Shown: one piece after another, positions 4,000 through 55,702 of the stretch
How positions within the stretch are numbered: the first letter of the stretch is position 1
Layout: each line of letters opens with the position of its first letter
Assembly (NCBI GenBank): GCA_964187785.1
Contig: OZ076409.1
Coordinates: forward strand, 12,836,001-12,900,000
Source: Amphiscolops sp. MND2022
Lineage: Eukaryota
Direction of reading: 5' to 3'
Length of the DNA: 64,000 nt
Notes under the pieces: generated by a model
The model's database searches: none
Seen by the model: only the letters and a program-made list of their open reading frames with translations
What the model was told of the DNA's origin: nothing
Position numbers and translations under genes: made by a program

Positions 4000-5860
4000 A
4001 AACACGACGTGAAACCGCAACAAAAAAGCGAGTTAGATCAACAACTGCGTTCCATTTGGTTCCAATAAGTCGAAGATAATGTTAATGACGAGATTGCAGA
4101 TTTCACTGTTGACAATTACGCGGCTCTCAAGCTGAAACATCCGCAGAGGGAAACTTGCTCTGTTCCGAACCCCACAGATATCGATTGTTTTTCAACCTCG
4201 GAGTCCTTCGTTGACAAGGCTCTAATGTCCTTCCCCAACAGCTCTAGTGCAGGTTTGCAAAGCTTTTTCCCCAAAAATTTTAAAAATTGACTGCCAAGTC
4301 TAACGAGCAAACTGAATTGAATGTTCCCAGAGCCGTAAAAAGTCTTGTGAATGGAATTATTTACGCTAAAAAACCCAATCAAGGATTTCATCTTATTGGT
4401 GTAGGCAAAAGTTTACTCCGGTTGTGTGCAAAATGTGAGAGATACTATGTCTTTGAATCACGTCAAGCAAGACGCGGAAGTCGACAAGTAGGTGCAGACA
4501 CCAATTAGGGCGCTTAATTGGCTTCGCAAGTGTTCCGTTGTGTGATAGAAAGCCATAAACCCAAAGGAAACGTAATCTTGAAAACTGACTTTGAAAACAC
4601 TTTCAACTCGATAAACTAATATTTCATGCTGGAGAAAACTTTTAAAAGACACCCTGAAGTTTATAAGTACTCACACTTGGGGTACAGTCAACCAATTTTA
4701 CTGTTTTACTGTGATTCAGTAATCAAATCTTGTAAAGGTACCAACAAAGAGATCCTGAGTCTCCAGTTTCATTTTCGAATTCAATTCAGGATCTGATTGA
4801 CAGTTTGAAGACCAAAATAAACTTATGGGATCTCGACGATGTAACTTTAAGTGATGATTACAGAACCGTTTTCAAAGATCTCAAAATAGTGTTGAAGCAG
4901 AAAAAACATCGGGACTCAAAATTAAACCCCCGAAATGTGAAATGTTTTTCTTTGGTGATATTTCTGAAAAACGACGATCGACAGTTTGTGCATCTTTGCA
5001 AAAAATCTGCCCCATCAAAACGCCAACAAAAGATGAACTTATTGTTCTTTCTTCAACGCAAGGTCCAAATGGGTGGTCTTAGTATTTCATCTGCATCATT
5101 ATTAGCATTTCCCGCCTTTTTTAGCCTCAGCTTTTGGTGAGAAAGACGTTCTCACAACAATTGTCTCTGACACCTTCGAAGATGTATCGTTCACAAAAGC
5201 GCTTGAGAAAGAGCTGAGTTTAACAAATGAACACAAAATTTCTTCCGATGGAACCCTGAAAAAGTGCACCCAAACAGTCTATATCAAATTTGCTCACGAT
5301 TTAATTTCTAGAAAGGATTACATACGTTCGAAGGTTTTTACCTCTCATCAAGGCGAATAGGGTCTCAGTGACTGAACTCAGTTCTTTGCAAGAACCTTGG
5401 CCTGATCCTTGATGATCAGCAGCTTCGGATTTTGATTGAGGTACGTCTCGGATCCAACAACTGTGTGGCACATACGTGCAACTGTGGTAAAAGTTTACCA
5501 CGGCCTTTCTTTCACAAAGAGTGCTGGTAGTTTCTCACGTCATGCAACTCTCAGTTTTCTCAGAAAGGAGACGTTGGGATCTCTCGATTTGCCTTTAATG
5601 TTTGAGCCGCTTCGACTGTACGGAACTGATGACAAACACGCAGACGGTGTTTCCATGGTTCCTTCGGGGAATGGGTCAACAACTGGTGTCGGATGTCGCG
5701 GTTGTGGAAGCTCTTGCACTCAATCGTCTGAATCAACCCTGCAACCACCACCGGCACCACCGAGCCTGAAGCATCGTAAAATTAAGAAGTATCCCGAAGA
5801 AATAGACAATGGATACATGTTTCAACCGGTGGTCATGGAAGTACAGGGATCATAATAAGG
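4000..5860 (+). pseudogene. Degenerate CRE-like (restriction-like endonuclease) non-LTR retrotransposon, RT plus RLE
   Basis: Fragments LKTDFENTFNSIN (~4580), QQ.DP, WDLDDVTL (a WYLDDGTL-like RT core), GGLSI, DGVSMVP, KY and FQPVVMEVQG occur in the expected order. Confidence 0.7.
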
Positions 5861-6559
5861 CGAGCGAACTAAAAAGCAAGAACAAAAAGCGAGGATCCAT
5901 GATATCTGATGATGGGGAAAAAGTCCCAGAATACTGACGCTGTTCTAGTCACTTCTCTTATAGTCGATTGACTTGATTTTTTTGTCGCGTCATTTGACTC
6001 AAAAATTTCACGACAAATGACCACAAAAATAAACCAAGTTCATTCTAACTCAAACAATGGCCTACAATGGCTATTCAACGCCAGGACTGAATTGAAGTTT
6101 TTAACGAAATGCTTGAGAAACAACAACAACAACAAAAGACGAAAAGTGACACGAAATGTTTAGCAATTTTGTTGTTTGTCTCAGTTGCTTCGCTCCCGTC
6201 GCCATGTAGCAACATTGGGGAATGACCATATGGCACGTGGTCCCACTTCGCTTCGCTTCTGCATTTAGGGAACTAGGGGTTTGTGAACGTACCTGACAAC
6301 ATGAGAGTAACAAATCCGACAAAATCTGCGGCGCTCTTTCAACTCTGTGATCCGGTAATCCGGAATCCGGCAAAATGATTTTAAGCCAAAAGATATTGGG
6401 TCAAGTGACAAATACTCGAGACATTTGGCTTGTAAAATTAAGGCCAAGTGACCAATTGTATAAGGTCAAATGACTTTAAGCCAAGTGATTTCAAACCAAG
6501 TGGTCAGTTACCCTGGTAACTCGTTTGTGATCAATCGCTGTCACCCAATTCACCAAAAT

Positions 6560-9019: not shown

Positions 9020-11197
9020 TGTCGTAAGCACGCGCGTTTGTGGATGTAGTTGGACCGTCTTTCTGACAGTCCATAAATGGCTTACTTCTCGAGATATCTC
9101 TGGAATCTGAGTTTCGCAGAACTTCGGAATATCCTTCCGGTCTCTCGGCCGGAACGTTCCATCTTTCTCTGGTCAATTGTCCCGATCCGGCCACAATGGC
9201 ATTTTGAATCTGGGGTAAAACCTGATTGCTAATTGCATCATTTATGGCTCTCTGTATCTGAACACTGACACTATTCATCATCTCGTCCATCTCTCTAGAT
9301 ATTCGGGAATTCAATTCACTCGACAGTCTATTTATCTCAGCACTAGAATTACCTCCAGCAGAGTTTTGGCCGTAATCGGCATTTGGACTAAGTCCGTCAT
9401 TTCTTGAATTTAAGTACCTGTTTTCATCATTATTTTCAAATTGATCACCAAAAGTACTTTCAGGTCTTCTGGTTTGATTACTACTGAGGCTTTCATCTCT
9501 CTCATTTCTACTGAAATGGTTTTCTCCGAGCATCATATCTACATTTTCAATGTCCGAAATTATCTCAACTCCTCTAGAATTTCTGGTTTTCTTCTGCTTT
9601 CTTGTTGTAGGCATTAGAAAGAAAGTCCGAGGTAAAACAGTGAATTAGGTTTTATTCGGAAAATAGGATTTTGTACGTTGTATCGTAAACAGGTATATCA
9701 AACTAAACTTGGAGAAGCAAAATACAATTGTGTCCCTCTCGGAAAAATACCAATATATATACCCCTGAGAGGGTGACACTCACATTCCTTGCATGACAAT
9801 CTATTTACAAATTCCATAAAGGGCACATGACCATGGCGGGTGACCACTAACATTCATTCATTTTTACCGGCGTCAACTGCATCAAAGCACTTAGGAATTT
9901 GTCCCGTTAGGGCCAAAGGGAATTCATACCTAATTCATTCGCAGCAAAATCATTTTGAGTTTACATAAAATATGGAATGCACTCAAATGCATTTTCTAAC
10001 TGCAAATACTATCATCAAAGGGGAGCGGAGGAATTTAGCCTTATTATATTAGGCAAACAACACTTTGACCAAACATCAAAACTAATACTTTCAAATTGTT
10101 TACAGTGAGAGGAATGTAAACTATTTAGCGGCACGTGCCTACACACGTGCGTAGAATCAACAAAACAAAGACACAGTTTCATGCAATAGAAATGAACATA
10201 ATATAGCAATATGGCCTAATACGGCCATTGGACTTGGGAACTGGCCAATAGTGAAGGCCGGAATAGGACAGGTAACGGGTATTCGGATTGCTACTACTGG
10301 TCGTTATTATTGCACTAATTGGATTTAAAAAGCTCATTAACATCTTCAAGTATATAAATATAATCTTACATGACTGTAAAACAAACTCATTCATGCTTAA
10401 AAGCATCTCTAATAATAATAAGCAAAATGGCCTAAACCGGCCATTTGCCTTTTGTCCTGCATTACCAATCTAATATAACGTCAAGTGGCCATATACGGCC
10501 AATCAATTAAAAATGTGTACAGCGCTTTACACAATCTGGCCTGAATAGGCTAATTGCCTCGTATTAAGTAAACATTATTAAAATACTGGTCAAACGGCCT
10601 TAACCGTCTGAAAGAGCTAAGTCTGTGGTGTAGTTAGTTAATACTGCACTAGAGGGGTTATTCAGCCTAAGAGTACAAGCACATGAATCCTGGTTAATAA
10701 TTAGCATCACAATTGCGCTTTTTGTGAAATGGCCGGAACCGTCTGACTGGATATTTATTAAAAGTAGCGAAGTTATGTCCACAGGCCTTATTCGGCCATT
10801 AATGAATGGAAATATTAACTGCGTAGCAAATGGAGTAATTTGATTGGACAAGGCCGCGTGCTCAAGTGACGTATCTGGTACGGGATTTTATCAAAAGCAA
10901 CTATAATTAAAACAATTAGCAATGCTTCTTCTAACACCTTTTATCATTGCATCTGACGTATTAAGACAGCTTCAAGTACTTTCCAAGAAAATAAACAGCA
11001 CTACTGATTAAATAGCACAGATTACTTGATGAAAGCTAAATAGGCCGGAACCGGCCATTGGACCAGCGTCCGCGAGCATAGTGGTTAGATTAAGGCAAGC
11101 GGCCATAACCGGCCAAATAATGTATTGCTGAGAGATAATGCTAATACTAGCTATACTGCACTGTGATTGGTTAATTTGCAGGAGGCAGCCTGCGACA
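9020..11197 (-). repeat. 3' LTR of element A (2178 bp)
   Basis: Matches 14950-17131 except for a handful of substitutions and a 4-bp GGCC indel near 10741. Confidence 0.97.
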
Positions 11198-12555
11198 CTG
11201 CGGGTGGAATAAATAAAAACGACCCTGCATTAAGTCAATTCAAATAAGCTTCCTTCATAATTGCTGTGACGTAGGCCGGCTCACCTCTTGGTGTTGATCT
11301 CCTTATCACTCCCGTCATCAGAATAGGTGTGAACAATGCTCAAGTTGTTAATATCAAATACACTCGTCTCAAGTGGGTAATTAACGAGTCGCTTGGAGGC
11401 AATTAACGGCACGCACCAAAGGTTTCTCTTAAAATGGTTTTAGCCAATCAAAATTGACTTTCGATAAAATGGAAATTGGTTAGTAAAATGGTGAAAATAA
11501 TAACTAAAATAATCCAGAATGCGGAAGTTCTAACTAAATGGTAATAAGGGCAACGGAACAAAACGGCAAAACGGAACAAGGTAAATGGCCATAATCGGCT
11601 TCTAACTAACTAATTTGTAAATAATGAGCAATCTTCTGTACATTTCGCTGGCAGACTCCATGCACAGTTTTAAATTCGTAAATAGCCATAAAATATTAAC
11701 CCGGTAATCTCTTCAGCCACGAACTCCAACTTTTCAATTTTGAGTATCATTATTCTAATTCCTTTATTATTTGGATTTTTGTTCATTTGAATTCATCTTT
11801 ACGACGTCCATCTCTCTCCGACTTCAACTTTGTTGCTGACTACATCTTCCTCGGAGTATTCCGGAGCATCTTCCCCTTTTCAGCCGAGCTCGGCCACTTT
11901 CCCCAACTTCACCAGCCGAATAAGGACGGTTACCCAGAAGGAGTTTCCATCACTGCAGGATGTCTTCAAACACAAGTTGATCTGGATTTTTATTTTGAAC
12001 TAATTTAACTTGATCAGGGTTAAAATTTGTTCACAAAATGCTTCCTGCTTCCATCACTAAACACGTGATAACACGTTTCATTCAAATTTTTAGAACACTT
12101 TCGAAAGGTTTCTGACGCGGCAAAATGGATTTCTTTCAAGGAAGCTAACCGCCAAATTTCATCTCTTTCTGTTTATAGAATCAGAACAAAGAGACTACTC
12201 GAACACCAGATCCCAATTCACCCGTGGGTACAGGTTATGCTGTTGTGTTTTCACCGCCCCTGTTTCCTCCTCTTAGAGTAGAGAGGTCCCCAAGTAGTAC
12301 TGACAGTGTTGATATTACAGCTTACGCTGACGAAAAGGTCAGACTCCATGCAGAGGCTCAATTGCTAGAAGGGTCACAGGTCGCTGAATCATTCATGGCG
12401 ACCAAGAGACAAAGGACGAAGAAGGAAGAAGGGTAGATGCAGTAGGAAGAGAAGTAGAAGGAGAGGTAGAAGCAGAGGGAGGAAGGACTTTAAAAATGAA
12501 AAGGAAAAGAAGAAAAGAGAGCAGTGTTCCTTCTTGGACGCTCATTAATCTTTTC

Positions 12556-13830
12556 CTAGTATCTGAAGTCTTCTGAGTAGTTTGGATCAGGATTAGGTCT
12601 CAGATTATATCTTCCACCTCTAGGACTCCGATTTTCATTTCCTTCATCATTTTGCGATATTTCGGGCACGATAATATCATCCCCCTTTTTTGGAGACTTT
12701 TGTGCATCGCTATCATTAGCAGAATTTCGTTCTGAAAAATTTGCATCGTTTCCTTGTCTTTCGGAGAGATCCGGCAAAGATTTTTCTGGATTTTTGTGGT
12801 AAACGGCCGAATCCGGCCAATCAGAGTTTTCATTTCTAGTAGCATCACTATCTTCATTTGCATTGCTGACGTCACTTTTCATTCTTTTATCTCGGCTGTG
12901 CACTGTATCGTTGACGTCATTCGGACGATCAGTCGTGATTATGTAATCCGCTTCATTCTCGCTTGCGTTATCTGCGTTCGCTTTTGCCGTACTCGGTCTT
13001 TCTTCATTCGCCAAGCTAGCCGGAATAGGCTCGTTGCCTCGTGTAGCTAGCTGTTCACCAAAGTTTGTTTCCCACGTAACTGTGTACAAATCGTCCTGCG
13101 GAATGACAATTTCTTCGTCCGGCAGTAATCGCTCTTCTCGGAAATTGTCCTCAAGCGGTTGATTGGGGACAAACTTTTTGAGGCGAATTCGATGCAAGAT
13201 CTGAGTTTTAAGGTTAATGTTGGTTGACAGGGGTATACAGTCTGGTTCACCATTTTTGGTAATGAGTACATTCAGGAACTGTCTCTCGTCTAGTAGCGAT
13301 TGTGGAATTGATTCTGCACAGTTTTCGATATTCTCGGTTCCCAAGGGGTTTGGAAACACCGGATGGTTTGTACCATCATTTATTTGCCAATTTCCAATTA
13401 GCGCTCTGGTTTTCTTGTTATGGGTAATTGGAGGGTTCTCGTGGACTGTCTTGTTGTAATGTTCAATATCGTCTAGAACATATTGAAATTGCAATAGATC
13501 CTGGTTGCAGATCTCAGTGTCCCAGTAGTGATCTCTTCCATAATCTGGGTCGATGTATGTAGGGTTGTAGTCGTCTACTAAGGGAATGGGCCTGAATCGG
13601 GTAGTAAAGGTAGTTGTGTAATCAGGATCCCAAACAGGAATTGATTTCTGGAACAAATGGGTATTATTATAGGTAATAATGATAGCTTTTTCAATTTGCT
13701 GCTGCCAGACAACAGAAGGATAGCCCATCAATTGTTGTTGGTAATTATGAAAGTTTTTGGTTTGAGGGTCCGATTTGATGTATTGACGGACAGAGACTAG
13801 TTGGTTGTATTGGAGTGGTGGCGAAGCTAG
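12556..13830 (-). pseudogene. pol: Element A pol remnant: pre-protease region fused in frame to the integrase C-terminal tail
   Basis: ...CIPLSTNINLK|TQILHRIRLKKFVP... joins segments homologous to element C YIPLHSTIVLK (before the protease) and TQTLHRIR (IN tail); ends RYNLRPNP.PN like C. Confidence 0.85.
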
Positions 13831-13835
13831 TTTTT

Positions 13836-15544
13836 TTACTCATCTTTGCTTGATGAGGATTGGGAATTGGATGATGTTGGCTTGTGATGGGGTTTTGAGG
13901 ATTTGAGGTCAGGATCGCTGTCCGACGAGTCCTCTGGCCTGGTGCGTTTGGGCTTGAGATGCGCACCAGCACCTTGCCAGCATCTCTCCTCAGGGTGGTT
14001 TGTCTTGCCACATGTCCCACATTTAGGATAAACCTTTTTCTGTGTGGGCTTGCCTTGTTGGGCATCTTTCTCCTTCTTCTTTTTGCGCTTTTCACAGTCT
14101 TTGACGATGTGGCCCTTTTCTTTGCAATAGTTGCAGGTAATGTCACTCATTTGGACGTTTGATGGAACAGTTTTTGTTTTTGTGGCTGAAGACGTCATTG
14201 ATGCCATTGGTAGGTCATCAGATTCTTCAAGCGCGTTTAGCTCCAATTCTCTCTCAAGATGAGCGACAATTTCGTCATAGGAGCCGTTCTCTAATCTGGC
14301 CATATTTACTGATCTTTTTTGCTTGGGCGGCAGTTTTGCGTATAGGAGACTGTCAATAATCTTTTGGGCATTGTCTCCGAATGTTTTTTCTGCGCCTTGA
14401 TTCAGCTCTTCAAGAAAATCTGGTAGTTTTGTCGTATTGGGATCAAATACCAGACGGTGCCATTTATGTTTGGCAGTTGCTTGAGATTCGGGTTTGACGT
14501 ATTTCCGTCTGAAGATGACTAATACGTCCTCGAGAGTTTGTCTGTTAGCTGTGCTAATGTTTCGGAATGTTTGCAGAGCGTTTTTTCTCAAAAGCGAATG
14601 AAAATGATTAATTTTCATCTGCTCGGACATCAACTTGATCATCGTGTGGAATAGATATACGAACAGCCCGAACTTCTTGCTTTTGCCGTCAAAAGTCATA
14701 GTGTTTGAGTTGACTGGGCGGATAGTGGGTTGTTGGGCTGTTGGACGGTTCTGCATACTGGTCAAGACATCAGCTACCTGTTGATAGGGTCTTGTTCCGG
14801 GGCCGGAACGGTCCTTTCTTGTGCTGGGATCGTCGTGTCGAGCAGGGGATTGAGGTCATCATGAGATCGGTTGAGATGACTTCTTGATGGCATTCGTCCC
14901 GTGAGAAACTCAGGAATATCAGTTGGAGATTCGTTTTCTCCTGTCACCATGTCGTAAGCACGCGCGTTTGTGGATGTAGTTGGACCGTCTTTCTGACAGT
15001 CCATAAATGGCTTACTTCTCGAGATATCTCTGGAATCTGAGTTTCGCAGAACTTCGGAATATCCTTCCGGTCTCTCGGCCGGAACGTTCCATCTTTCTCT
15101 GGTCAAATGTCCCGATCCGGCCACAATGGCATTTTGAATCTGGGGTAAAACCTGATTGCTAATTGCATCATTTATGGCTCTCTGTATCTGAACACTGACA
15201 CTATTCATCATCTCGTCCATCTCTCTAGATATTCGGGAATTCAATTCACTCGACAGTCTATTTATCTCAGCACTAGAATTACCTCCAGCAGAGTTTTGGC
15301 CGTAATCGGCATTTGGACTAAGTCCGTCATTTCTTGAATTTAAGTACCTGTTTTCATCATTATTTTCAAATTGATCACCAAAAGTACTTTCAGGTCTTCT
15401 GGTTTGATTACTACTGAGGCTTTCATCTCTCTCATTTCTACTGAAATGGTTTTCTCCGAGCATCATATCTACATTTTCAATGCCCGAAATTATCTCAACT
15501 CCTCTAGATTTTCTGGTTTTCTTCTGCTTTCTTGTTGTAGGCAT
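13836..15544 (-). pseudogene. gag: Element A gag, starting inside the 5' LTR; 1-bp frameshift near 14775
   Basis: ORF 15544..14774 and ORF 14765..13836 join as INR(L)ADVLTSMQN. TFDGKS.KF..F capsid-like region shared with C; knuckles CNYCKEKGHIVKDC and CGTCGKTNHPEERC. Confidence 0.88.
14938..14949 (-). promoter_or_regulatory. Primer binding site TGGTGACAGGAG of element A
   Basis: TGG-starting tract directly after the 5' LTR; the identical 12-mer follows the 5' LTR of element C. Cognate tRNA not identified. Confidence 0.85.
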
Positions 15545-17131
15545 TAGAAAGAAAGTCCGAGGTAAAACAGTGAATTAGGTTTTATTCGGAAAATAGGATT
15601 TTGTACGTTGTATCGTAAACAGGTATATCAAACTAAACTTGGAGAAGCAAAATACAATTGTGTCCCTCTCGGAAAAATACCAATATATATACCCCTGAGA
15701 GGGTGACACTCACATTCCTTGCATGACAATCTATTTACAAATTCCATAAAGGGCACATGACCATGGCGGGTGACCACTAACATTCATTCATTTTTAGCGG
15801 CGTCAACTGCATCAAAGCACTTAGGAATTTGTCCCGTTAGGGCCAAAGGGAATTCATACCTAATTCATTCGCAGCAAAATCATTTAAAGTTTACATAAAA
15901 TATGGAATGCACTCAAATGCATTTTCTAACTGCAAATACTATCATCAAAGGGGAGCGGAGGAATTTAGCCTTATTATATTAGGCAAACAACACTTTGACC
16001 AAACATCAAAACTAATACTTTCAAATTGTTTACAGTGAGAGGAATGTAAACTATTTAGCGGCACGTGCCTACACACGTGCGTAGAATCAACAAAACAAAG
16101 ACACAGTTTCATGCAATAGAAATGAACATAATATAGCAATATGGCCTAATACGGCCATTGGACTTGGGAACTGGCCAATAGTGAAGGCCGGAATAGGACA
16201 GGTAACGGGTATTCGGATTGCTACTACTGGTCGTTATTATTGCACTAATTGGATTTAAAAAGCTCATTAACATCTTCAAGTATATAAATATAATCTTACA
16301 TGACTGTAAAACAAACTCATTCATGCTTAAAAGCATCTCTAATAATAATAAGCAAAATGGCCTAAACCGGCCATTTGCCTTTTGTCCTGCATTACCAATC
16401 TAATATAACGTCAAGTGGCCATATACGGCCAATCAATTAAAAATGTGTACAGCGCTTTACACAATCTGGCCTGAATAGGCTAATTGCCTCGTATTAAGTA
16501 AACATTATTAAAATACTGGTCAAACGGCCTTAACCGTCTGAAAGAGCTAAGTCTGTGGTGTAGTTAGTTAATACTGCACTAGAGGGGTTATTCAGCCTAA
16601 GAGTACAAGCACATGAATCCTGGTTAATAATTAGCATCACAATTGCGCTTTTTGTGAAATGGCCGGAACCGGCCGTCTGACTGGATATTTATTAAAAGTA
16701 GCGAAGTTATGTCCACAGGCCTTATTCGGCCATTAATGAATGGAAATATTAACTGCGTAGCAAATGGAGTAATTTGATTGGACAAGGCCGCGTGCTCAAG
16801 TGACGTATCTGGTACGGGATTTTATCAATAGCAACTATAATTAAAACAATTAGCAATGCTTCTTCTAACACCTTTTATCATTGCATCTGACGTATTAAGA
16901 CAGCTTCAAGTACTTTCCAAGAAAATAAACAGCACTACTGATTAAATAGCACAGATTACTTGATGAAAGCTAAATAGGCCGGAACCGGCCATTGGACCAG
17001 CGTCCGCGAGCATAGTGGTTAGATTAAGGCAAGCGGCCATAACCGGCCAAATAATGTATTGCTGAGAGATAATGCTAATACTAGCTATACTGCACTGTGA
17101 TTGGTTAATTTGCAGGAGGCAGCCTGCGACA
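14950..17131 (-). repeat. 5' LTR of element A (2182 bp), with TATA-like box (15684-15691) and AATAAA (15581-15586)
   Basis: Direct repeat of 9020-11197; adjacent to the PBS. Confidence 0.97.
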
Positions 17132-17992: not shown

Positions 17993-18263
17993 TGTACTCA
18001 CCTACATTAATAACCAATAGTATTTAGATATTTATAGAATGTTCTAGAATTTACATTTATTTATTATTGAATGACTGTAAGTCTCTACTCCCTCAGAGAG
18101 AGAGAAAACTAATAATCAGTATTCAGTTGACTTCCTTTTTGTTCTACTTCTAACACCTCGAACTAGTTGTAATAAAGTTAGCTAGCTAGCCTGTCTCTTA
18201 GCCGCTTTTAGTAGTTGTTAATAATACCACCAAAAGAAATAACAAACCATTAAAAGCAGCACA
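17993..18263 (+). repeat. 5' LTR of element B (271 bp)
   Basis: TGT...ACA ends, contains AATAAA, followed by ATT-TGGTGCGAC; first ~135 bp repeated at 36217. Confidence 0.88.
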
Positions 18264-18266
18264 ATT

Positions 18267-18278
18267 TGGTGCGACTTG
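18267..18278 (+). promoter_or_regulatory. Primer binding site of element B (TGGTGCGACTTG)
   Basis: TGG-initiated tract 3 nt after the LTR end. Confidence 0.7.
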
Positions 18279-18488
18279 TAAAATTTCTTGCCTTTTCTCC
18301 TGGATGATTTCTCTTCTCTCAACAATCATACAAATACCACTCTCCATCTTTGAAATTCTCTGGAATTGCAGTGAAATCTTTCTAGAATTTCTAGAAAATT
18401 TAGTCTGTGACTTTCTGAATTACATTATTAAATACATCATCGTTCGAAAATACAACAATCCACTCAAATACAACAAATTTTCTTCACT

Positions 18489-18712
18489 ACCGGTTTATCA
18501 CGTTTTCTAACACGTTGACACGGTTCTTCCTCCTGCTCTTCTTGCCACACCGGTTTATCACGTTTTCTAATACGTTGAAACGGTTTCATTTCAGACTGAT
18601 TTATCCATTGTGACACAGTTCTCTTTCTCTTCTCTTTCCAGACTGATTTATCCACAAGTGACACAGTTCTGTTCTCTATACTGATTTATCACAGCTAATC
18701 CGGAAGCTTGTT
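18489..18712 (+). repeat. Short imperfect repeats in the leader of element B
   Basis: ACCGGTTTATCACGTTTTCTAA.ACGTTGA twice with a 60-bp period; CAGACTGATTTATCCA...GTGACACAGTTCT twice plus a partial copy. Confidence 0.85.
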
Positions 18713-19805
18713 GAAACAGATCGTTGATGTTTGTCTGGTTTATCAAGGTTTTCTAACACCTTTGACACAGCAACTTTCTTCAATCCTGCTATCTTAAACG
18801 TCAGGTGGACTCCTGGTGTAATAGTTGACTGAATGCATGTCCAGCTCAGCTCACCTATAAGCACATACGTATCAAGATCAACTTCGTGATGGCAGAAAAC
18901 CTGGATTTTCTACCTTTACGTTTCGGATCCATTTTCTACGAAAAATTCCTACAAAATAGTTTTCAGAAATAGACTCTGAATACAAAAAAAGGGGCAACCA
19001 AGACTATCTACAAAAAACAACCACGCACTATTCCATTTCTTTTCCAATTGTCGACAAACAATACAATTAATTTTACAAACCTTAAACAATACAAATAACT
19101 TCAAAACTTAAAAAACACAAGCAAAATAACAACACAATCTACACTCAACCTTATATCTAATACTTTCAACGGTAATAATTTTAACATAATCCTACAAAAC
19201 ATTTATTTCAACAAAATACCACATACAATTCTTACAACTCTTTTGCCCCAAAACCTAAAATAAGGCATGTAAATAACACAAACACTGTAAAGTTAGTTTT
19301 CTACTTTCAGGCGCCCACAATTGCTATCCCCTCCCGTAAGACTTAGACAATCAGACAGCCTCACCAGCTTACTCTGATTCTAAGACTGACTAACAACCTT
19401 GGTAAGTGTAAACGTCTTAAAGGAGAATCGAGAGGACACCGAACTACGTTCGAATCTTCAAAATTCTCAGGAAATAAAAGTAAAAGTAAAAGAAACAAAG
19501 ATCAAACTTTGATCTTGATCAGCATTGATCAGACTTTGGATAGTGGACGTTGATTGTTCAGAGTTCCACTCCCTTAGTCTTAAAACACACAACCCACTTA
19601 AAATTAAAACCACCTTAGTTTTTCTGGACGAGTCAGTAACCTTATGTTAGACACTTTGAAGTGATCCAGACTTAAAATCACATTTAGTTTCTGTTAGCAA
19701 TCCTTTGAGGTTGAATACAGATCCTAGTGCATCCGCTTCTTTCTTCTCTATCCAAAACTACTAACATCCCAAATAACTTCAAATTCTTGTTAGAACACAA
19801 ATTAT

Positions 19806-22800
19806 ATGAACTCTAACATATACAATCAAGCGATTTATCCTTTCAACTTTTACATTCCGCCAATTAGCTCACTTCAAAATCCTACATCAAACGATTTTGA
19901 AAGATTAATTGAACGATATCAACAATATTTGTTCTTTATCATAAATCAACAAAGACATTACCCAAGAGCTCCAACTTAGAAGGATCTCTATAAAAAATTA
20001 TTTTCAACGTTTCAATCTTCACATTATAACATGTGGGGAAAAGTTACCACAGTAGTACTCATTACAACATGCACGTTTTGTGTCTTATTTATAGTTTGTG
20101 TTCTCCTTGAAAAAATACTTACAGTGAAAAGAGATAAACTTTAAAAATGTCCTCAACAACAACCTTTCTACCTTGTCAAACTCCCGTCATTAAAATGCAA
20201 AAGTTGTAAAATTAGAACTAAACCCATTCCTACAAAACATTATTTCACATTATACACAACCACTCCCATTTGAGAATGAACCTCATACATTTGAAACAAT
20301 ACTTCTTATCAGAGAACAATTGGACACATACCTCTTCTATATTAGATACAAAGTTTTAACTATCACCGCAGAATACCCAGCTTTTCAAATCTCCTTTCCT
20401 CAACAAAGACCTAATTCATCTGATATATACAGAAGAACAATAAACCCAATGAATCTCCAAGTTCCTATTAAACAAGTTTTTCATGCTTTTTTAAACAATG
20501 TGAAAGACCACAACCTAGCACATGAAATTCCATAATTTAGTCCAAATGCACTCGACGACCTTGAACGAGATATAAACAATTTCGAAAAAGAAATTATTGA
20601 AAGATTAGTTAATCCTGAAGACAATCCTCATCATTGGTTACAAACTGATATACTACGAATTCAAAATTTCTTCTACCATTATTTCAAAGACTTAACATTA
20701 AATGACCAAACAACTCCTCAGGTCAAAGTAATATCTCTATTCCTCAGAAAATACTTCAGATTTAATTATCAACTATTATGGTCACAACAAGATCAATCTG
20801 CTTTTACAGCATTCCCAAATCATTTTACAGTCGACGAATGTTTACCATTCATCATCAGTGAACAAAATGAACAACCTTATTTTCATAAACCACAATTAAT
20901 TACAAAACAAACTTTAGATTACATACGTTTTGATCCTCTATTAATTACAGAAAATGATCTATTTGCAGACAATAGACCTTATCACTATGAACAAAATTCT
21001 CAAGTTCAGCAAAACTTACATTTTACCACTAATAACTATACTGAAGATGATAATACCAATAATGAAAATACATTCCAACAACAAAATCAAAATGAAAACT
21101 ATACCGATAATGAGTTTACTACTCAAGAATCTACAATTTCAACACAAAGATCATCACAAACAGGAATATCAACATCAGTACACACTCAGGCCTTTAGAGT
21201 TCCCACTAGAGTTGTAAGTCAGAGACAAAATACACATAGTCCTCAATCTCATTTAGATACATCTCCAAACCGTAATATAACTTTCAACCTTCCATACACG
21301 GATGAAACACACGACGAAACCCATGATACATTACATGATGATATTCTGACCCCATCTAGTGCTCAGAATACTTCTGGTAATGTTGCATCTCCAACAAGAA
21401 CTATTCCTGATTCTACAAGATACATTACTCGACCTAGATATGATCCTCTATCAAATCCCTCTGCTTTCCGCTCAAATAGATCGATTACTTCAAACAACAA
21501 TTGTAATGATAATCCTCAAACTTCCAATCAATATTACGATCCATTTAATTATAACTTTTATCCTCCATCAAATACAACTACCAATACAAATATCAACCAA
21601 AATCACTCTCAATTTAATACAACTTCAACAACACAAAACCCTTTCATACAATTATCACATACCACTACTTCACAGAATATATATTCTCAAAATCAAGGAA
21701 CTTCGTATCCTTCCACTTCTTATTCTCATATCACACAAGCTTCTCAAAGGAGACTTCAAAACCCTCCACTTACACATATACCAACTGTTCCTTTGTATCA
21801 AATGCATCCAAATCCAAATCCTAATCCTAATCCAAATCCATTACCACAAAATACAACTCAACATATACCTCCTCAACTCACACATCAATTAGCTCCTCCA
21901 CTCCAGTATTTACCAATGCCACAAGATACCTTTATGAACATGTCCGCTTCAATACCAGAACCTATGAAACCTTTTGATGGTTTTGACCATTCTTATACCC
22001 CAGAAGAATATCTACAACAAGTCGAAGCTAGATTAACCTTCGCCATAGGTGAAGAACCTCAGAATAATCTTATAAGATACAAATCTTGGCATAACAGACG
22101 CATGGCTTACATACAATGTTCATTAACAGGAACAGCTGTCGATTGGTATACTAACCTTCATATATCATATAAACAACAATGGAACTCCTTTGTACAATTA
22201 TTCAAAAAACAATTTTCATCTCAAAAAACAGCTTACTACGCCCAAGTAGAAGCTATGTCACTCATGAAAAAAGATAATGAAACAATACGCCACTTCGCCC
22301 TTAGAGTACAACAATTAGTTAAAAAGGGATGGTGTAATGAAAATGCAGCTACCATAAACCTCAAAAATAATGAAATCTTTACTAAAGGATTCCCCAAGAA
22401 ATTAAAAGATTTTGCCCATAAACGACAAGTTAAACATGTATCAACATTACTTGAACCTTCAATACCATTTCACACACTTGTTAGAAATGCCGATTCTGAA
22501 GACATTGCTAATAAAAAAATTAGAACTAACGACTTAGCTCTAGAAATAAACAAAGTATCGCTTGAAGATGATACTAGCAAAAATAAATTTGAACATGAAG
22601 ATCATATAATGGTTACTCAATCTGGAGACCCAAATAACAAAAACAAACCAGCTTATAAAAAATATTGTTCCTATCGTCACAAAAATAATCATAGTATTTC
22701 AAATTGTTATCAAAAACAACGTAATGATGAATACCAAAAATACAATAACCAAAGATCACGAACTCCTCAACAACTTTTGTACAATATTTTAGCAGTAAAC

Positions 22801-25800
22801 CTAATAATTCACAAGAAAATCGAAATGACAATACAAATCCTTACTCCTCAGATGATGATCGTAACAAATATAATCAAAATTACTATAATGATAGATACAG
22901 AAATAATGATAGATATCGTAGCAATAGTAAAGAATATTCGCAAAACAACTATCGATCAAATTCTCGACAAAGATATTACAATCGATCTCGAAGTCCATAT
23001 AGATCTCGATTTGATAATTATTATCAAAGAAGAACTCCATCTAGACCTCCATATAGATCTCCATATAGAAATAACTCAAATTACAGATATAACTCTCGCT
23101 CAAGATACAGATCTCGTTCCCAATCACAAGGAAACTCCTTTAAACGATATAATTATCCATATAGATCTCCATCAAGACCTAGAGATTTTAAATCACGATC
23201 TAGAACACCCTCACGAAACAGACAACAAAACAGAATAAATCAAGTAGACGTTAAATCTACAAAAGACAATGATAGTACAAAGATTGAAATCCACACCTGT
23301 CAAATAACTGAAATAGCTAATACAATCACTCCTTATAGTTGGTTTTATCCACTATATATTCACGCTTCTGGAACAAATGATAACATATTACCTTCAAAAT
23401 TGGAAATCTTATTCCTCTTAGATACTGGAGCATCCATATCTGTTTTGAATTTACCAACATTTCATGTAATTTCCAAACAATTAAACATCAATGTTCCAAC
23501 CAATCTTCAAAACAAAAGAGCCAAAACTCTTACAGTTGCAAACCAAACTGAAGTACCAATAATACACTATATTTCGATGACCTGTTTTACTGAAGTAAAC
23601 CATCAAACGCAATCCTTCAATATCGATTTCGCCGTAGCCAATATCTAATACAACATTCTTGGGACACCCTTTTTCAAAAAACACATCCAAAATATCGATT
23701 TTCAACAAAATATTATGACTTACATAGAACAACATCCAAAGCTTCCAACAAAAACAACATTTTCCACATTTACAGAAAAGGATTACCCATATATTTCTTA
23801 CATCTATACTATTAAATGTAAAGAACCAATTCACTTTAAACCAAGGTCAGGAAAAACCATACATTTCCCAATTAAAAACTATTCAAATCTACATTTTGAA
23901 CTTGAAGATAATACAAAATTCTATCCAACAAACCCATATGCATACTTCTTACAAAAAGTTAAAGATATCTTTCATTTCTTAGATATGGTAGTCAATGGAA
24001 AAAGCAAAGACTCTTGTGCAACCATAATTCAAAACTTTACATCTTACCCAGCCACATTACCACGAGGAATCATTGGATACATAGAGATACCTATTACTCA
24101 AACAACTCCTCCTCACTATAGAGTTAAAGATGTAAATTCACTTATTCACTCTGTTATACATGCGTATCATCCTGATACCACAACTCCAATTAAACAAAAT
24201 CCATATGCAGATATGAACTTATGTGCTAGGGTAACACCAAAATCCCTATTAGAAAGTAACAAAATAGAAATCAACGACGAAACACTTCAACTTCCTATAC
24301 CTTCTGTTACTGGAAACCTTCGACCCTCCGATTAAATTCGAAAAGATTTTCCTCCATTACCCTATTCTACAGAAAACCAACAATTCATAAAAAAGTTTAA
24401 CTTTGAATACTCAGATCTAACCGATACAGAATATGTAAAACTCTGCAATATTTCGATTGATAATCAAAATTGTTACGCCAAACATAAGAACGACGTAGGA
24501 AAAATTTTCTATTCCCTTTCGAATTAGAATAAAAGATAATTGTACACTTCAAACACAAAGACCTTCTAAAGTACCAATTCACTATAGAGATAGACTAAAT
24601 AAACTTTTACTAGAACTCGAAAAATACAATATAATAGAACAAATTGGTTCCACATCAGATGAAAAACACACAATTGGAACAACATTTTTAAATCCTTTGA
24701 TTATTATCCGAAAAGGAGACGCAATAAAAGTTGTATTAGACGCAAGACATCTAAACTCAAACACCAACCAAAAACTTACATCTTGGCCTATTGAACCTTT
24801 ACCTCCTGAATTAGATAGAGCCAATAAAAAATATAAACCAACTATTGATCTAATGTATGCCTATGCTCATACACCATTAGACGAAGAAACGATCAAACTT
24901 ACAGGATTTTCATCCGGTGACAAACTATACGCCTTTATCCGTGGATTTTATGGATTAAAGGGACTTCCAAACTTTTTCACAAAACAAATGTCAACTTTCT
25001 TTAGATCATTTATGGACAAACGTTCTGCGTTAGTTTATATCGATGATGTTTTATTACTCGCAAATGAAAAACAAGAAATGTTTGAACTCATAAAAGAATT
25101 ACATACAATAGCATCTCAAGAAAATCTTAAACTTGCACTCGAAAAATCATTCTACATGTTACTCAAAGTAAAATTCCTTGGACATGAGATTGCTAACAAC
25201 ACATTCAAACCAATTCCATCCAAAATCGAAGCCATTAAATGAATTCCATCACCAAAAGAAAAGAAAGATGTTATGCAATTTCTTGGCAGTGTTAACTTTT
25301 ATTCAAAATTCATTGAAAAACTCCATATAAACCATGAACCATTGTATACATTACTACATGATGATGTCAAATTTCAATTGACACCTGAATTAGAAAAAAT
25401 ATTCCAAAATGTTAAAAATGCAATGACAGCAGACACTGAATTATCAATACCCAATACAACGCATCCATTTTTCATAACAGTAGATGCTTCGTTAGTTGGT
25501 TTAGGCGCAGTCGTATTCCAAATGAACAAAGAAAATAAGATGAAAGTAATCTCTTATAACTCCAGAATTCTTAACACACAAGAACAAAAACTTTCAACTT
25601 TAGATAGAGAACTTCTCGCAATAGTTTACGCATTACAAATATATGAATTTTTGATCATTGGACCTCCTCATCCCATATACATCTTCACAGATCACAAACC
25701 TTTACTACATTGTTTCGCAAAGAAAGGAAATCTTAGTCCTAGATTCTATAGAGCACAAATGCAACTAACCAAATTCTCCAAACTAAAAATCATTCATACC

Positions 25801-28200
25801 ACTGGAAAAAACTTAACTGTAGCAGATATGCTTTCACGAACTTTTACAAAAGAACAATTACAAGTACACCAAGTACGACACAAACAATTACCACCTCAAA
25901 TAGATTTCTCTATCATGAAAGATAATCAACTCAAACCATTACATTATTTAGTGAAACACGAAGAAATCAAGTACAATCAAAAAAATGATTGTCATCCTAT
26001 CCTTGCTGACTACGAAGACGACCAATTCTCTATCCGTATAAATAACAAAGGAGAAGATATCCACATAAAACTTTTAGATTTCTTCTCTTTTCAATCTATT
26101 GTTCCATTTGAATCAAAATATAAAACGCCTACAAAAAACCAAACAAAATCTCTCTTACAACAATCGACAATTCTTAATGATACTGATATTCTCAGTGATG
26201 ACGATGAACTAACTCAATCAAATAACATCCAACATCAAAACTCAGACATATTAAAAGAACACACACTTGCTATACAATATCCTACCAAATCCGATTATTG
26301 TAGACAACAAGTTCTATTTTTTGATCCATCTTTTTTCAAATACAAAAGATATTTTAATTATTTCTTCCTCCAAGAAGATACACAAATAACCATTGAAACA
26401 ATAAAAGCTCAACAAAACCAAGACACTGTTTTACAAAAGGTTTACCAATGGATACTTGAAAATGAAAGACCTATACAAATAAACCCAACAATTGCAGCTA
26501 ATTCTTTCTTATTAGTATATTACAAAATTTTCAACCAACTATATATTAACCATGATACAAAAATTATACACATAGATTATCCTAATCTTCACGATTCCAA
26601 TCCGAATCAAAGAGACAAAATATGTCTACTATTTAAACTCTTCCACGCAGCTTTTAACAAACTTCATGCTCACGGATACTCAGAAATGAAAATATCCATC
26701 AAAGCTTTCAACCAATTTTACTTCATACCATATTTGAATAAATGGATGTCAATATTCATCCATGATTGTATTGAATGTCAACAAAATAAACTCATTAACC
26801 AAACAATACAAACTGCATCCATACACACCTTCTCAGAAAATGCTTCATATTTTAATTACCGAATATCAATGGATACAAAAGGACCTATAAACCCACCATC
26901 AAATCAAAATTCATACATTCATGTTATAGTAGACGCTTTTAGTCACTTTGTAGTAACAGTACCCATAAAGCAAAATAATGCTCAAAACGCTGTTAACTCT
27001 TTACTACATCATTGGATAACAAAATTTGGACCTCCTGTATGACTAGTTACCGACCGTGGAACAGAATACATTACTTCCGAATTTGCAAACCTTTGTGCTA
27101 CAATGGGAATTAGACATTCACCAAGAACTCCTTATGCATCATGGACTAATGGTCTAGTTGAAAATCAAAACAGAAATCTTGGAACTCATCTCAGACTTTT
27201 CTTACATAACACTCCAGAAAACTGGTCTACTCAAGTTCATATGTATGCTTATACACATATTTCACAACCATTTTCTGAAATGGACTTATCTCCATATGAA
27301 ATACTATTTCATACTATACCCAGAATTCCAATCAATTTTGAACTCAATCTCCAAAGAGATACATATAGAAATTGTACTTCCCAATATTGTCAAGAATTAC
27401 CACTTCATACACACCATGACAAATCAAATCTAAACCCCTTCTTCCATAAAATTTTATCTAAACCGATCCCACAATGGATCTTAGCCACTGAAACTGCTAT
27501 GATACAAATATACCACACAGTATATGAAAACACAAAAAATATAATTCTTAGGCCTATTTTAACAAAACATACCACAATCCGAGACCCTTGGATATTGGTA
27601 CATTTGCACTAAAAAGAAATTTTCTCCACGTTCATTTTTCCGATAAATTAAAACCTCTCAGAATTGGACCATTCAAAATTATTTAAAAAATTTCCGATAT
27701 AACGTATGAAATTGTTAATCAAGATGGTTATACATCTCACATACACAGAAATCATTTAATTCCTTACTATCCAAAAGAACCAATTATTTTTCCTTTCCTA
27801 CAACAGTATAATCCTCATTTATTCAGTGATAGTCTTTCGAATATAAACGATCAAATAATTAACTCCGATGAAAACCAATTTAGTGACGAAGATCAATTTT
27901 CTTACACAACACCTAATAAAGAAACGGATATACCATCCACAATCGACTTCCAACCAGAATCATTTAGCCAATATTCTTCATTTCCGTACTAACAAAAGGA
28001 ACAAATTCCTCCAAATACCAACTCAGATAACCAATCAGACCTTCATGACTATGATAATTTTATTAACCCCCGAAGACACTCCTATAATAGATACATTTTC
28101 CGCCCACAAACAAGAAAAGACTATCGTTTTTCAAGAAAAGACTTTTCAAGAAAAGACTTGGTGAAAACGATATAATTTCACTTTCTCAAAAACCCTGCTG
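19806..28200 (+). pseudogene. gag-pol: Element B Gag-Pol polyprotein (~2,800 codons, several stops and frameshifts)
   Basis: Retrotransposon-gag core (SLTGTAVDWY...WNSFVQLFKKQF), knuckle CSY(R)HKNNHSISNC, protease LLDTGAS, RT YIDD, RNase H DAS/ELLAI/TDH/ADMLSR, integrase zinc-finger remnant and DTKGP/DRG/NGLVE, GPF motif (IGPFK). Confidence 0.92.
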
Positions 28201-28381
28201 AAATACAGAAAGAAATATAAAATGAAAATTTGAAAGAAAGAAAGGAAGTTTGAAGCTTAATGTGAAATTGAATGAAAAATATTTCACAAGTGATAATGAA
28301 AAAAAGAAATCCTAATTGATATAAAATTATAACTAATTTACAAATTGAAACAAACTACCATAACACAAAGATTTCAAAATT

Positions 28382-29833
28382 GATAGACATATTCACTCAC
28401 CATCATCAACCACAAATAACTCATCTTCTAGTTCAACACATTCACTCCAAAAACTACCTGAATATACAGCATATTCAAACTCAGATACAGACATACTGGA
28501 TTCCTCATCCTCAAATCCCAGTCCATCCGCTCCATATACTCCTGATAGAGTACCAACAAGACCCACCAATACATCTATAACCCAAACTCAAACACTAGTA
28601 ATAACAACTCAATCACAACCTATTTCACGAAATCTAACATTTGCAGAAACAAATTCACCAGTTTCTGACTCTAATGATGAAACAGTTACAACACCAAATA
28701 CACAAGATACTTCAAATATTTTAAATAGACCTCCTCTTCCACCAATCACTACCACTAGTTCCGTTCATATCCCTGATCCCAGCTCAGTTCTACAATACAT
28801 AAACTCTTGTCCACATAAAGTTCCAACCGCAACGAAAACAAAAAGAAAACCTCCTTTACCTACATTACCACAAGACCTTAATCTACCATCATCAAGTCAT
28901 ACTCCAATAACATTCTTACCAGAACCTTCATGGAAGGCACCAGTGAAGAAATCACAATAACACCCAATTCCTTCACCATCTGAACTAAGTTCATTCACAT
29001 TTTCTCAAATATGTCCCAAACTTGAATTAGAACGTGTACATTCAACCACTACATCTTCTTTACCAGATTTATATCATAAAGACAAAGATTCTGACTCAAC
29101 TGCTAGTACTAGAGTACCAAGACATAATTATAACCTTCGATCTCAACAACAAAGAAATTCTCAGGAATTACAATCTTTAACTAGTTCAAGTACAAACTCA
29201 AGACTACTTAGACAGCACGCCCAACCCAGATTAGACACTTCTTCTCTTTCCTCATCCCAACCCACTATACCATCTTCTTTATCACTACCATTTCAAATCA
29301 CATCAGGATTTGAAACAGCTTCTCTTCTTTCTGAAGACCCAGTAACTATATCAGATAGCGCAGCTAATTTTTCGCGAGTTTACTCACCTAGTTCAATAGC
29401 ATCAAACTCTTTTATACAATCACCTGAATATTTTTTAGGAGATTTCTCAAGACCTCCAACACCAAACCCTCACGAATATCCCATCCGTGTTAATTCAAAA
29501 ATTGTTCGTACGCTTAACGAAGCTCCTCGATACACGGTCGTACCTGCAAGATTTATAAACAATAGTTCACTCTCAACTCAAAGAAAACAAAGAGAATTAC
29601 GAAGATTACAAGAACAACAACTCACTTTAAAATTTGAAGTAGAAGTCACATTCAACTCCTCAGGACCTCATCCATTCTCTTTTTCAACAAGAGTAGCACA
29701 CAAAACAACCCCATCACCATTCATAGTCACATCCATTTCTTACCTTTGTGACGCAGAATTACCTGAGATTAGAACAGGACATATAAACTTTTTTAATCCC
29801 TACTCCGGACTTAATTATAGAACAATATTTTAA
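28382..29833 (+). pseudogene. Ser/Thr/Pro-rich reading frame (~480 codons, one internal stop) between pol and env; no start Met seen
   Basis: By manual translation the frame is open apart from TAA at 28958; it is the same frame as env and ends at a 19-bp tandem duplication near 29816-29853. Confidence 0.6.
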
Positions 29834-29866
29834 CTATAGAACAATATTTTAACCAATGTTTTAACC

Positions 29867-55658: not shown

Positions 55659-55702
55659 CTGCCATGTTTTCTTTCGGGAAAAATTTTCCGAGTTTTTCAG
55701 TT

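Follow-up and report, generated by a model that had tools for sequence, protein, structure and literature searches.

Two lineages of Gypsy-type LTR retrotransposons have, with high probability, an N-terminal Gag region that is coded inside the LTR and kept by selection. In both, the RNA that serves for Gag translation likely begins in the same LTR, about 115-130 nt before the ATG, and is read across the LTR end and the primer binding site (PBS). About one third of Gag is encoded by the last 400-600 bases of the LTR, and this part is under selection. The lineages are represented by elements A and C in the window, i.e. the whole 64-kb stretch of DNA that was analysed, and belong to a large, recently active family. 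The arrangement is an extreme variant of the Ty1 layout within a Gypsy-type lineage. A long LTR-coded Gag was not found by exact-phrase or related literature searches; Repbase, GyDB, subscription journals and supplements were outside their scope, and an earlier description is possible.

The Gag frame inside the LTR

Both elements, and all features given below with coordinates, are on the minus strand. The 5' LTR of element A (17131-14950) is 2182 bp long, has TG...CA ends, and shares the target duplication CAAGC with the 3' LTR (11197-9020), to which it is 99.5% identical. Element C has its 5' LTR at 54327-51952, with the target duplication GTTTT, and its 3' LTR at 40629-38242, in which the Gag frame shifts and stops after 52 codons. 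The target duplication is 5 bp in A and C and can also be read in relatives, and the LTRs of these elements are 1.7-2.5 kb long.

The Gag ATG is located 595 nt (A) and 400 nt (C) inside the LTR, in frame with the PBS. This agrees with the first-pass annotation, which had placed the ATG at 15544 in A and 52351 in C; the LTR codes for 198 and 133 codons, respectively, plus one base. In A this N-terminus (15544-14950) consists of a basic tip, low-confidence linkers and one long helix, and in C it covers 52351-51952. The PBS of A (14949-14938) is complementary over 12 nt to the 3' end of tRNA-Leu(CAG) and is read as Gag codons, and the PBS of C (51951-51939) is complementary to tRNA-Leu(CAG) over 13 nt. 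Genes for tRNA-Leu(CAG) match the PBS over these 12-13 nt, and ARAGORN called two of six loci as tRNA genes. As noted earlier, the terminal A of the LTR and the PBS spell ATG GTG ACA GGA (MVTG) in both A and C. However, MVTG is forced by the CA of the LTR end and the TGG of the PBS, so the phase alone is informative.

The rest of the gag of A (14949-13836) contains a spacer, the capsid and two zinc knuckles. In the window copy the frame is broken near 14776, with a stop at codon 257 and the capsid-nucleocapsid part in another frame (14756-13836). The internal part of the C gag (51952-50909) has DUF1759 above the Pfam cut-off and two CCHC-type knuckles that can be read from the translation. An uninterrupted frame across the LTR end had been claimed for both elements; it is found in other copies, but the C copy of the window has a TGA at codon 119 (51997-51995).

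Among the best 30 matches to A, all are in frame up to the PBS at 594 nt, and 26 have a single frame of 569-572 codons that runs from the LTR through the capsid to the zinc knuckles. Unbroken read-through of 478-480 codons is seen in eight of the best 30 matches to C, and all 14 diverged C-lineage copies that we picked are open at 393-399 nt. The copies examined are the best-scoring matches, which biases these counts towards intact frames. The layout is kept in all whole-element regions examined (12/12): the LTR ends at the PBS and the Gag ATG is present in both LTRs in nine of nine A-lineage regions and three of three C-lineage elements. In the LTR part of ten representatives there are no stops in the Gag frame, compared with 4-31 in each of the five other frames, and in unbroken copies the LTR-coded length varies in steps of three (393-399 and 585-594 nt).

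It is highly improbable that functional Gag instead begins at the junction MVTG, with the LTR ORF being an upstream extension or a separate protein that is in frame by chance. The junction ATG does lie in a strong context, with a purine at -3 and a G at +4, and the LTR part is far less conserved than the capsid, with identities of 51-62% vs 95-99%. However, this ATG is the forced one, many AUGs lie upstream of it, both lineages keep the frame open and in phase across the junction with lengths in steps of three, and a conserved splice-donor-like motif was not found in 15 copies. For a Gag that starts in the LTR, position -3 of the first ATG is a pyrimidine in 21 of 21 listed A-lineage copies, and the leader of three of these contains an additional ATG further upstream; leaky scanning could therefore reach later in-frame methionines.

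Selection on the LTR-coded codons and the encoded proteins

The first-pass annotation had proposed dN/dS as a check, and the LTR ORF does not evolve neutrally. The dN/dS of the LTR-coded part is 0.09-0.27 in 21 pairs, with a highest bootstrap upper limit of 0.53, and the four pairs whose dS is below 1 give 0.13-0.26. For variants shared between copies, pN/pS is 0.09 in D, 0.09 in C, 0.13 in G and 0.16 in F; for singletons it is 0.27-0.41. The LTR-coded Gag codons are thus under purifying selection across copies, with a looser constraint than the capsid. In the A subfamily alone, with 28 copies and few variants, selection is not significant in the LTR part (p = 0.27), nor is it in the capsid.

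According to structure prediction, the helix at Gag residues 89-142 has a pLDDT of about 80, while the mean pLDDT of the full-Gag model is 38.7; a complex prediction for four helix copies (score 0.11) speaks neither for nor against binding. Residues 1-260 have no usable match in the Atlas, and the Atlas neighbours of Gag are retrotransposon Gags. A profile search gave 890 unnamed matches, and the cluster members that were read likewise bore no name. Between the LTR-coded parts of the A and C lineages no homology was detected beyond 15 residues (hhalign probability 5.7%). DUF1759 is above the cut-off in the C gag and in P0027, zf-CCHC and Retrotrans_gag are below it, and the capsid starts about 80-90 codons after the PBS. 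The LTR-coded part likely serves as a matrix-like region, with a basic tip, disordered linkers and a long helix that may oligomerise.

The order of pol, obtained with Pfam from the relative E, is PR-RT-RH-IN (the protease is below the cut-off, E 2e-5), and in the C element of the window RT is followed by integrase. Ty1 has the copia domain order; unlike in Ty1/copia (Pseudoviridae), the integrase is not upstream of RT here. Solved foamy-type, Ty3 and other RTs score alike against these RTs. The slippery heptamer A AAA AAC is found at the end of gag in six of six cases, and the pol frame opens about 37 codons upstream of its ATG. Gag-Pol would be made by a -1 frameshift at this heptamer, and in that case it would carry the same LTR-coded N-terminus. 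The elements also have antisense ORFs and a sense ORF3. In C, ORF3 (41272-40586) is a second ORF that runs over an LTR border, at the opposite end from Gag: it ends inside the start of the 3' LTR, and this border has no purine tract.

Promoter, RNA ends and primer site

The TATA-like box that had been reported upstream of the ATG is present in both elements, and its arrangement with an initiator-like motif is conserved. In A the TATA box (15691-15684, TATATA) is conserved in relatives at 115-150 nt before the ATG, and an initiator-like CA (15662-15656) follows after 30-32 nt, with a predicted start at about 15659-15661. The core promoter of C (52515-52477) has its TATA at 52515 and an initiator-like TCAGTC motif with the A at about 52480. 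Promoter types were grouped by clustering, which replaced a noisier first classification (r2 at most 0.5). An initiator-like CA is located at +29 to +35 from the TATA in 32 of 34 promoter types, with 8.4 expected; this initiator window was set once the sequences had been inspected, and the 34 types are mutually related. Given the conservation of TATA and initiator-like CA, transcription likely starts in the same LTR, 115-130 nt before the Gag ATG. The RNA would then start in the LTR, and translation would run from the LTR ATG straight through the LTR end and the PBS into the capsid.

The first-pass annotation also described an AATAAA before the ATG. The hexamer is present at 15586-15581 in A, in one arm of a weak hairpin (z < -2 in five of 19 promoter types), and at 52372 in C, but it is not conserved among relatives. 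As a poly(A) signal it is unsupported: the canonical hexamer occurs in nine of 34 leaders, with 8.1 expected, and in none of 14 diverged C-lineage copies. At such a chance level the label U5 for the coding stretch is unproven. Copies in the genome with a poly(A) tail were sought at two candidate sites; each of two patterns gave 0 matches, a result that favours no site.

Where the RNA ends may be explained in three ways. Perhaps, and we put this forward tentatively, the TATA-like hexamer acts as a promoter in DNA and as the poly(A) signal, in a hairpin loop, in the 3' copy of the RNA. Cleavage would then fall close to the initiator CA, leaving a very short R and a U5 of about 700 nt that is mostly coding. 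An inverted repeat does surround the TATA of A (15709-15660, arms 15709-15692 and 15672-15660). It ends at the predicted start site and is stable despite differing sequence, with a folding z < -2 in 15 of 19 promoter types compared with two of 19 in each of two controls, and the 30 nt after it contain 27-53% T. A dual role of TATATA has been suggested for Retrofit, Tnt1 and HML LTRs, according to PMC3601003. However, the hairpin is about equally stable on the opposite strand (16/19) and so may act as DNA, RNAalifold gave no consensus fold from a MAFFT alignment, the hairpin is not seen in two C copies, and many copies have TATATA instead of TATAAA. If this reading is true, the coding stretch would keep its U5 label, though by virtue of another signal, and the RNA would escape being cleaved too early in the 5' LTR.

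A non-canonical signal with cleavage within the coding stretch or near the LTR end, which would make the Gag codons mostly R, is possible though doubtful. One mosaic type combines a D2 leader (87%) with a G Gag, and among 56 D copies the four-gamete violations are at 0.00-0.15 in the leader and climb to 0.24-0.34 past codon 65. A signal near the LTR end is described for some Gypsy clades in PMC3601003. However, other mosaics switch at the leader, and the mosaics need no long R, as template switching inside a long U5 accounts for them. Neither was a conserved signal found near the LTR end, where variants are seen in 10 of 19 (synonymous recoding predicts 7.0) and nine of 15 (5.3 predicted). Under this reading a solo LTR could produce a self-contained truncated RNA. 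The original proposal, an AATAAA signal 20-45 nt before the ATG with an R of about 100 nt and the coding stretch as U5, is unlikely. The hexamer is at -42 in A, with a CA and T-rich runs behind it, at -27 in E and at -21 in the C subfamily of the window, and other promoter types are A-rich at that site. Against it are the near-chance count given above, the varying positions, and its absence from the leaders of D1, D2, F and most G types as well as from the diverged C-lineage copies.

An RNA stem likely forms at the primer site in the A lineage: an LTR arm (15093-15067) would pair over a long range with an internal arm beyond the PBS (14914-14886), and the stem would close around the LTR end and the PBS. 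Synonymous conservation is raised in the arms, 0.86 and 0.94 compared with mostly 0.4-0.7 elsewhere, and the duplex outscores all of about 112 other windows in 15 of 15 copies; the arms were selected after folding. Covariation in the stem is not above that of shuffled alignments (167 of 500 shuffles are as high), and one pair has a two-sided change. The stem is not seen in the C lineage. The internal arm lies beyond the PBS and is absent after 3' and solo LTRs; the stem would only exist at the 5' end of the genomic RNA, where it may organise priming or mark the 5' LTR. Minus-strand strong-stop DNA would be about 710 nt long in A and 530 nt in C. At the other end, a purine tract before the 3' LTR is absent in A and C of the window and in relatives, where the sequence is pyrimidine-rich or mixed instead.

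Gag fragments in other LTRs and relation to known elements

Both new LTRs receive a copy of all sequence that precedes the PBS, so each 3' or solo LTR inherits a gag fragment that lacks the capsid. The first-pass annotation had expected such LTRs to carry a promoter and an ORF running into flanking DNA. The ORF at 9614-8991 is indeed the 3' LTR copy of the A Gag N-terminus and ends nine codons into the flank, and all 3' and solo LTRs examined have the promoter motifs, the ATG and the coding sequence of the long helix. The reach into the flank, however, is short, 1-31 codons with a median of nine in 15 of 15 3' and solo LTRs. Differences that arose after insertion between paired 5' and 3' LTRs are 22 replacement and five silent (19 pairs, one frameshifted pair dropped) and fit neutrality. 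With this short reach and neutral ratio, the suggested chimeric genes are unsupported. Truncated peptides from these LTRs are possible, and the spare gag fragment is likely a by-product.

That such a peptide is functional, as a dominant inhibitor of Gag assembly in copy-number control or as a seed of chimeric genes, appears distinctly improbable. Promoter motifs, ATG and long helix are retained in each of these LTRs, and Ty1 is restricted by a self-encoded Gag fragment (excerpts of PMC13709905), so a self-encoded truncated Gag, similar to the p22/p18 control of Ty1, is conceivable here in principle. However, p22 holds the C-terminal domain of the capsid and is made from an internal transcript, as the same excerpts describe, while the putative LTR peptide lacks the capsid, in which the activity of p22 resides. 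Nor has a stop codon become fixed within the LTR; the limited flank reach and the replacement-to-silent ratio also argue against a function, and selection on full Gag already explains the LTR ORF. A wider idea, that the LTR is a cassette coding at both ends (ORF3 over the plus-strand border, which lacks a purine tract, and Gag over the minus-strand border) in which the long helix of the LTR peptide poisons or tunes particle assembly, copy-number control scales with LTR number and the stem marks the 5' LTR, has in our view little chance of being right.

In Ty1 the gag AUG is also in the 5' LTR, with a 53-nt 5' UTR, the PBS at RNA nt 95-104 and a cis-acting RNA structure inside gag, according to the consulted sections of PMC5454406. 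As in Ty1, the gag start codon here is upstream of the LTR end and the PBS is within the gag frame. The overlap in Ty1 was said to be far shorter, and this is correct: it is about 41 nt, computed from the numbers in those sections, compared with 400-595 nt here, a ratio of ten or more. The LTR of Ty1 is 334 bp, compared with 1.7-2.5 kb here, and its primer is initiator-Met rather than tRNA-Leu. The disordered N-terminal region of Ty1 Gag is needed for particle assembly (PMC10372613, in excerpt).

TG...CA LTRs, a 5-bp target duplication, a tRNA PBS, a capsid with CCHC knuckles and the order PR-RT-RH-IN are shared with Ty3/Gypsy (Metaviridae), and the Ty3 RT is among the best solved relatives. 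Differences from Ty3/Gypsy are the start of Gag at a long distance 5' of the PBS, the lack of a purine tract next to the 3' LTR, and the presence of antisense ORFs and a sense ORF3. The elements are Gypsy-type by the order of pol, and not a textbook member since the purine tract is missing. Retand elements, a plant lineage, reportedly have antisense ORFs between pol and the 3' LTR (PMC11963269), and the long pol-to-LTR region with antisense ORFs resembles them in layout. Here the TATA is conserved and the AATAAA is not, the reverse of animal Metaviridae as described in the consulted parts of PMC3601003. Long ORFs inside LTRs are described for HIV nef, MMTV sag and HML (PMC2664473, in excerpt). 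Like nef, ORF3 extends into the start of the 3' LTR; however, nef and sag are separate genes in the 5' third of the LTR (U3), whereas the LTR ORF here is the front of Gag, downstream of the TATA.

A Gypsy-type element can thus take the Ty1 device, a gag that begins in the LTR, as far as an entire protein region of 133-198 residues. This implies a very long strong-stop DNA and a triple constraint on the LTR end, which has to be integrase site, primer site and coding sequence together. It further implies a spare piece of gag in every 3' and solo LTR. Pipelines that mask LTRs would truncate Gag at the junction methionine, and gene callers already enter LTR-sized fragments as proteins (many entries of 100-250 aa). 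One family poses two questions, i.e. how an RNA ends without a conserved AATAAA and how the plus strand starts without a purine tract.

LTRs, primer site and the gag frame

Comparison of the window with itself gives two LTR pairs, both on the minus strand. The LTRs of element A (17131-14950 and 11197-9020) are 99.5% identical, with the target duplication CAAGC, and those of element C (54327-51952 and 40629-38242) are 97.0% identical, with the duplication GTTTT. Both 5' LTRs end in CA, directly followed by TGGTGACAGGAG, and the primer binding site (PBS) shows a match of 12 nt (A) or 13 nt (C) to the 3' end of tRNA-Leu(CAG). Because this match adjoins the terminal CA, the LTR end is set without reliance on the ORF. 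A pattern search for the tRNA-Leu 3' end gave 780 matches, the majority of those listed lying within one tandem array, and ARAGORN called a tRNA-Leu gene at two of the six loci fetched. On contig C8, an extensive tandem array of units of about 296 bp, which bears tRNA-Leu 3' ends matching the likely primer, runs from 35,595,871 onward.

Although the target duplication is intact, the C LTRs differ densely in the first 500 bp, by about 2% in the middle and at only two positions in the final 500 bp, and an identical TGA triplet is present in both. This uneven divergence may reflect gene conversion or mixed templates.

The TATA-like box, the AATAAA and the ATG lie where the first-pass annotation had placed them. 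Its claim that the frame crosses the LTR end does not hold for the window copy of C, and unbroken read-through is seen in other genomic copies. Both window copies are broken: the gag frame of A stops at codon 257, beyond the LTR end, and C has a stop at codon 119 in the 5' LTR and an ORF of only 52 codons in the 3' LTR. In all 30 of the best genomic matches to A the ATG precedes the junction ATG (spelled by the LTR-terminal A and the PBS) by 594 nt, and 26 of them keep a single frame of 569-572 codons including capsid and zinc knuckles; for C, 478-480 codons are open in 8 of the 30 best matches. In 14 of 14 hand-picked, diverged C-lineage copies the frame runs uninterrupted for 393-399 nt up to the PBS. 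A protein search found 214 longer relatives; the 120 listed have 459-747 residues, mostly about 570, and nearly all of these 120 carry MVT at positions 190-199. Families D, E, F and G were defined from four of these relatives, P0004, P0027, P0085 and P0077, with 76 scored matches each in the same genome. At the level of whole elements, all nine A-lineage regions have LTRs of 1.74-1.92 kb that end at the PBS and contain the Gag ATG in both copies, and all three C-lineage elements have an identical layout. Being drawn from best-scoring matches, all of these sets are biased towards intact copies. Identity is 37% between the Gag proteins of A and C across capsid-nucleocapsid and 82% between the RT of C and that of family E; likeness between the LTR-coded parts is confined to the first 15 residues.

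Selection and structure of the LTR-coded part

The LTR-coded part is under selection, though far more loosely than the capsid. Its dN/dS is 0.09-0.27 (Nei-Gojobori, 21 pairs of 7 natural copies), 0.13-0.26 where dS is below 1 (four pairs), with a bootstrap upper limit of 0.53 at the highest, against at most 0.05 for the capsid. For variants present in at least two copies, pN/pS in the LTR part is 0.09 in D (52 copies), 0.09 in C (20 of 30), 0.13 in G (22 copies) and 0.16 in F (16 copies), each far from neutral; singletons give 0.27-0.41. Neutral evolution of the LTR ORF, named at first pass as the outcome that would speak against it, does not describe these values. In the A subfamily by itself (28 copies) the LTR part is indistinguishable from neutral (p = 0.27), as is the capsid. 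Identity between families is 51-62% in the LTR-coded part, compared with 95-99% for capsid and PR-RT-RH.

The structure model of full Gag is poor (mean pLDDT 38.7), and the one confidently predicted helix, residues 89-142, lies within the LTR-coded part. Its hydrophobic residues are mostly spaced by four, which we take to suggest a right-handed coiled coil. In the alignment, variable linkers separate four elements: a conserved basic tip, one short helix, the long helix and a W-x4-ERPE motif.

Codons 150-164 and 195-209 stand out by unusually high conservation of their synonymous sites. In an RNAalifold prediction from 30 copies, 15093-15067 forms 17 pairs with 14914-14886, and the resulting stem encloses the LTR end and PBS. 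Pairing holds in 99% of cells, against 28-59% in slid controls; only 0-19 of 300 synonymous recodings are as strong, and in 15 of 15 copies the duplex is stronger than all other windows, with arms chosen after folding. Covariation was not above shuffles, and the same stem was not seen in the C lineage. An RNA stem around the LTR end and PBS is likely in the A lineage.

Since reverse transcription copies the sequence from cap to PBS into each of the two new LTRs, a spare ORF can be intact with no selection acting on it directly. Of 29 classified LTRs, 15 are 3' or solo, and their frames extend 1-31 codons into the flank (median 9). The 5' and 3' LTRs of single elements differ by 22 replacement and 5 silent changes (19 pairs, one frameshifted pair dropped), with a neutral expectation of about four to one. 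The short read-through and neutral ratio leave the chimeric genes proposed for such LTRs unsupported; a truncated Gag peptide may be made.

Promoter and RNA end

In both lineages a TATA-like box lies 115-165 nt upstream of the ATG. Of 34 promoter types, 32 have a CA-N-W motif at +29 to +35 from this box (8.4 expected from shuffles), a count that supports a start site but does not prove it, since this interval was picked after the sequences were seen and the types are related. The C-lineage form is TCAGTC. Transcription is predicted to start near 15659 (A) and 52480 (C), and we infer that the part of the LTR that codes for Gag is transcribed; its earlier label, U5, is not established.

The mosaic subfamilies fit more than one position for the end of R. 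Promoter and leader modules have been exchanged between subfamilies (region L061 versus L067; L177; L128 versus L123): D1 and D2 have Gag in common but differ in their leaders, and in L177 a D2-like leader precedes a G-type Gag.

Three readings of the RNA end were weighed. The TATA may, we tentatively suggest, serve as both promoter and poly(A) signal, giving a short R: of 19 A-lineage types, 15 have it enclosed by an inverted repeat (each control, 2 of 19), but the repeat has no consensus fold and is about equally stable on the opposite strand. A long R, with the RNA ending within the coding stretch or near the LTR end, is only slightly less likely; no conserved poly(A) signal was found near the LTR end. 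The first-pass choice of AATAAA is unlikely: 9 of 34 leaders contain AATAAA or ATTAAA, where 8.1 would be expected, and the position varies.

Whole elements and known layouts

Relatives of A measure about 16 kb and contain Gag, a Pol of up to 1701 residues (PR-RT-RH-IN) and, where gag ends, the heptamer A AAA AAC. Between pol and the 3' LTR lie two antisense ORFs (672-844 and about 317 residues in the A lineage; 1795-2748 and 4001-6019, minus strand, in region L138); neither has a Pfam match, and the longer has a Cys/His zinc-finger-like motif. In the window, antisense ORFs in this position lie at 42861-45759 (plus strand). A sense ORF3 (window 40586-41272; L138:7083-7865; also L140 and L142) encodes 228-262 residues with an acidic N-terminus in both lineages and extends into the beginning of the 3' LTR; in A relatives it has about 260 residues and ends 89 nt inside. 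With Gag over one border and ORF3 over the other, each LTR border, like each priming region, lies within an ORF. Neither lineage has a purine tract ahead of the 3' LTR.

Element A (9020-17131) is internally deleted, keeping gag and only the ends of pol, with substitutions at otherwise invariant capsid residues. Since its LTR-to-LTR spacing (5.93 kb, about 14.3 kb in relatives) is common to many genomic copies and most of pol is missing, A looks like an amplified non-autonomous, gag-only subfamily. At C5:67761401-67791869 (L147-L150) a tandem LTR-internal-LTR-internal-LTR array has one target duplication (AGCCT), its middle LTR serving as both 3' and 5' LTR; at 99.98% identity it may be an assembly artefact. 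Similar spacings, 14.3-14.4 kb, occur on C6 and C12.

Elsewhere in the window, element B (17993-36348, plus strand) is a distinct, decayed element of Gypsy type whose terminal repeats are 134 bp long. It has about 3.3 kb ahead of gag, and an envelope-like ORF (29867-32011; Pfam Monjiviricetes_fusion, E 8e-23) with more ORFs after it. A Pif1-helicase fragment precedes an endonuclease/exonuclease/phosphatase ORF at 294-1774 (plus strand), presumably a Helitron/Helentron-like order, and repeats with a period of 742 bp occupy 55408-61550, together with 52-bp subrepeats and further diverged copies.

In Ty1, the stated 5' UTR of 53 nt and PBS at nt 95-104 (PMC5454406) leave about 41 nt of gag ahead of the PBS, bearing out the earlier remark that its overlap is far shorter. 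By these positions the overlap in A and C is 10-14 times longer, and it sits in an element with Gypsy domain order. The long retroviral LTR ORFs nef and sag are, as described in PMC2664473, separate genes in the U3 part. A search of openly accessible papers, outside Repbase, GyDB, subscription journals and supplements, found no description of a long LTR-coded Gag. The LTR-coded start of Gag is a genuine feature maintained by selection, and represents an extreme form of a layout already known.
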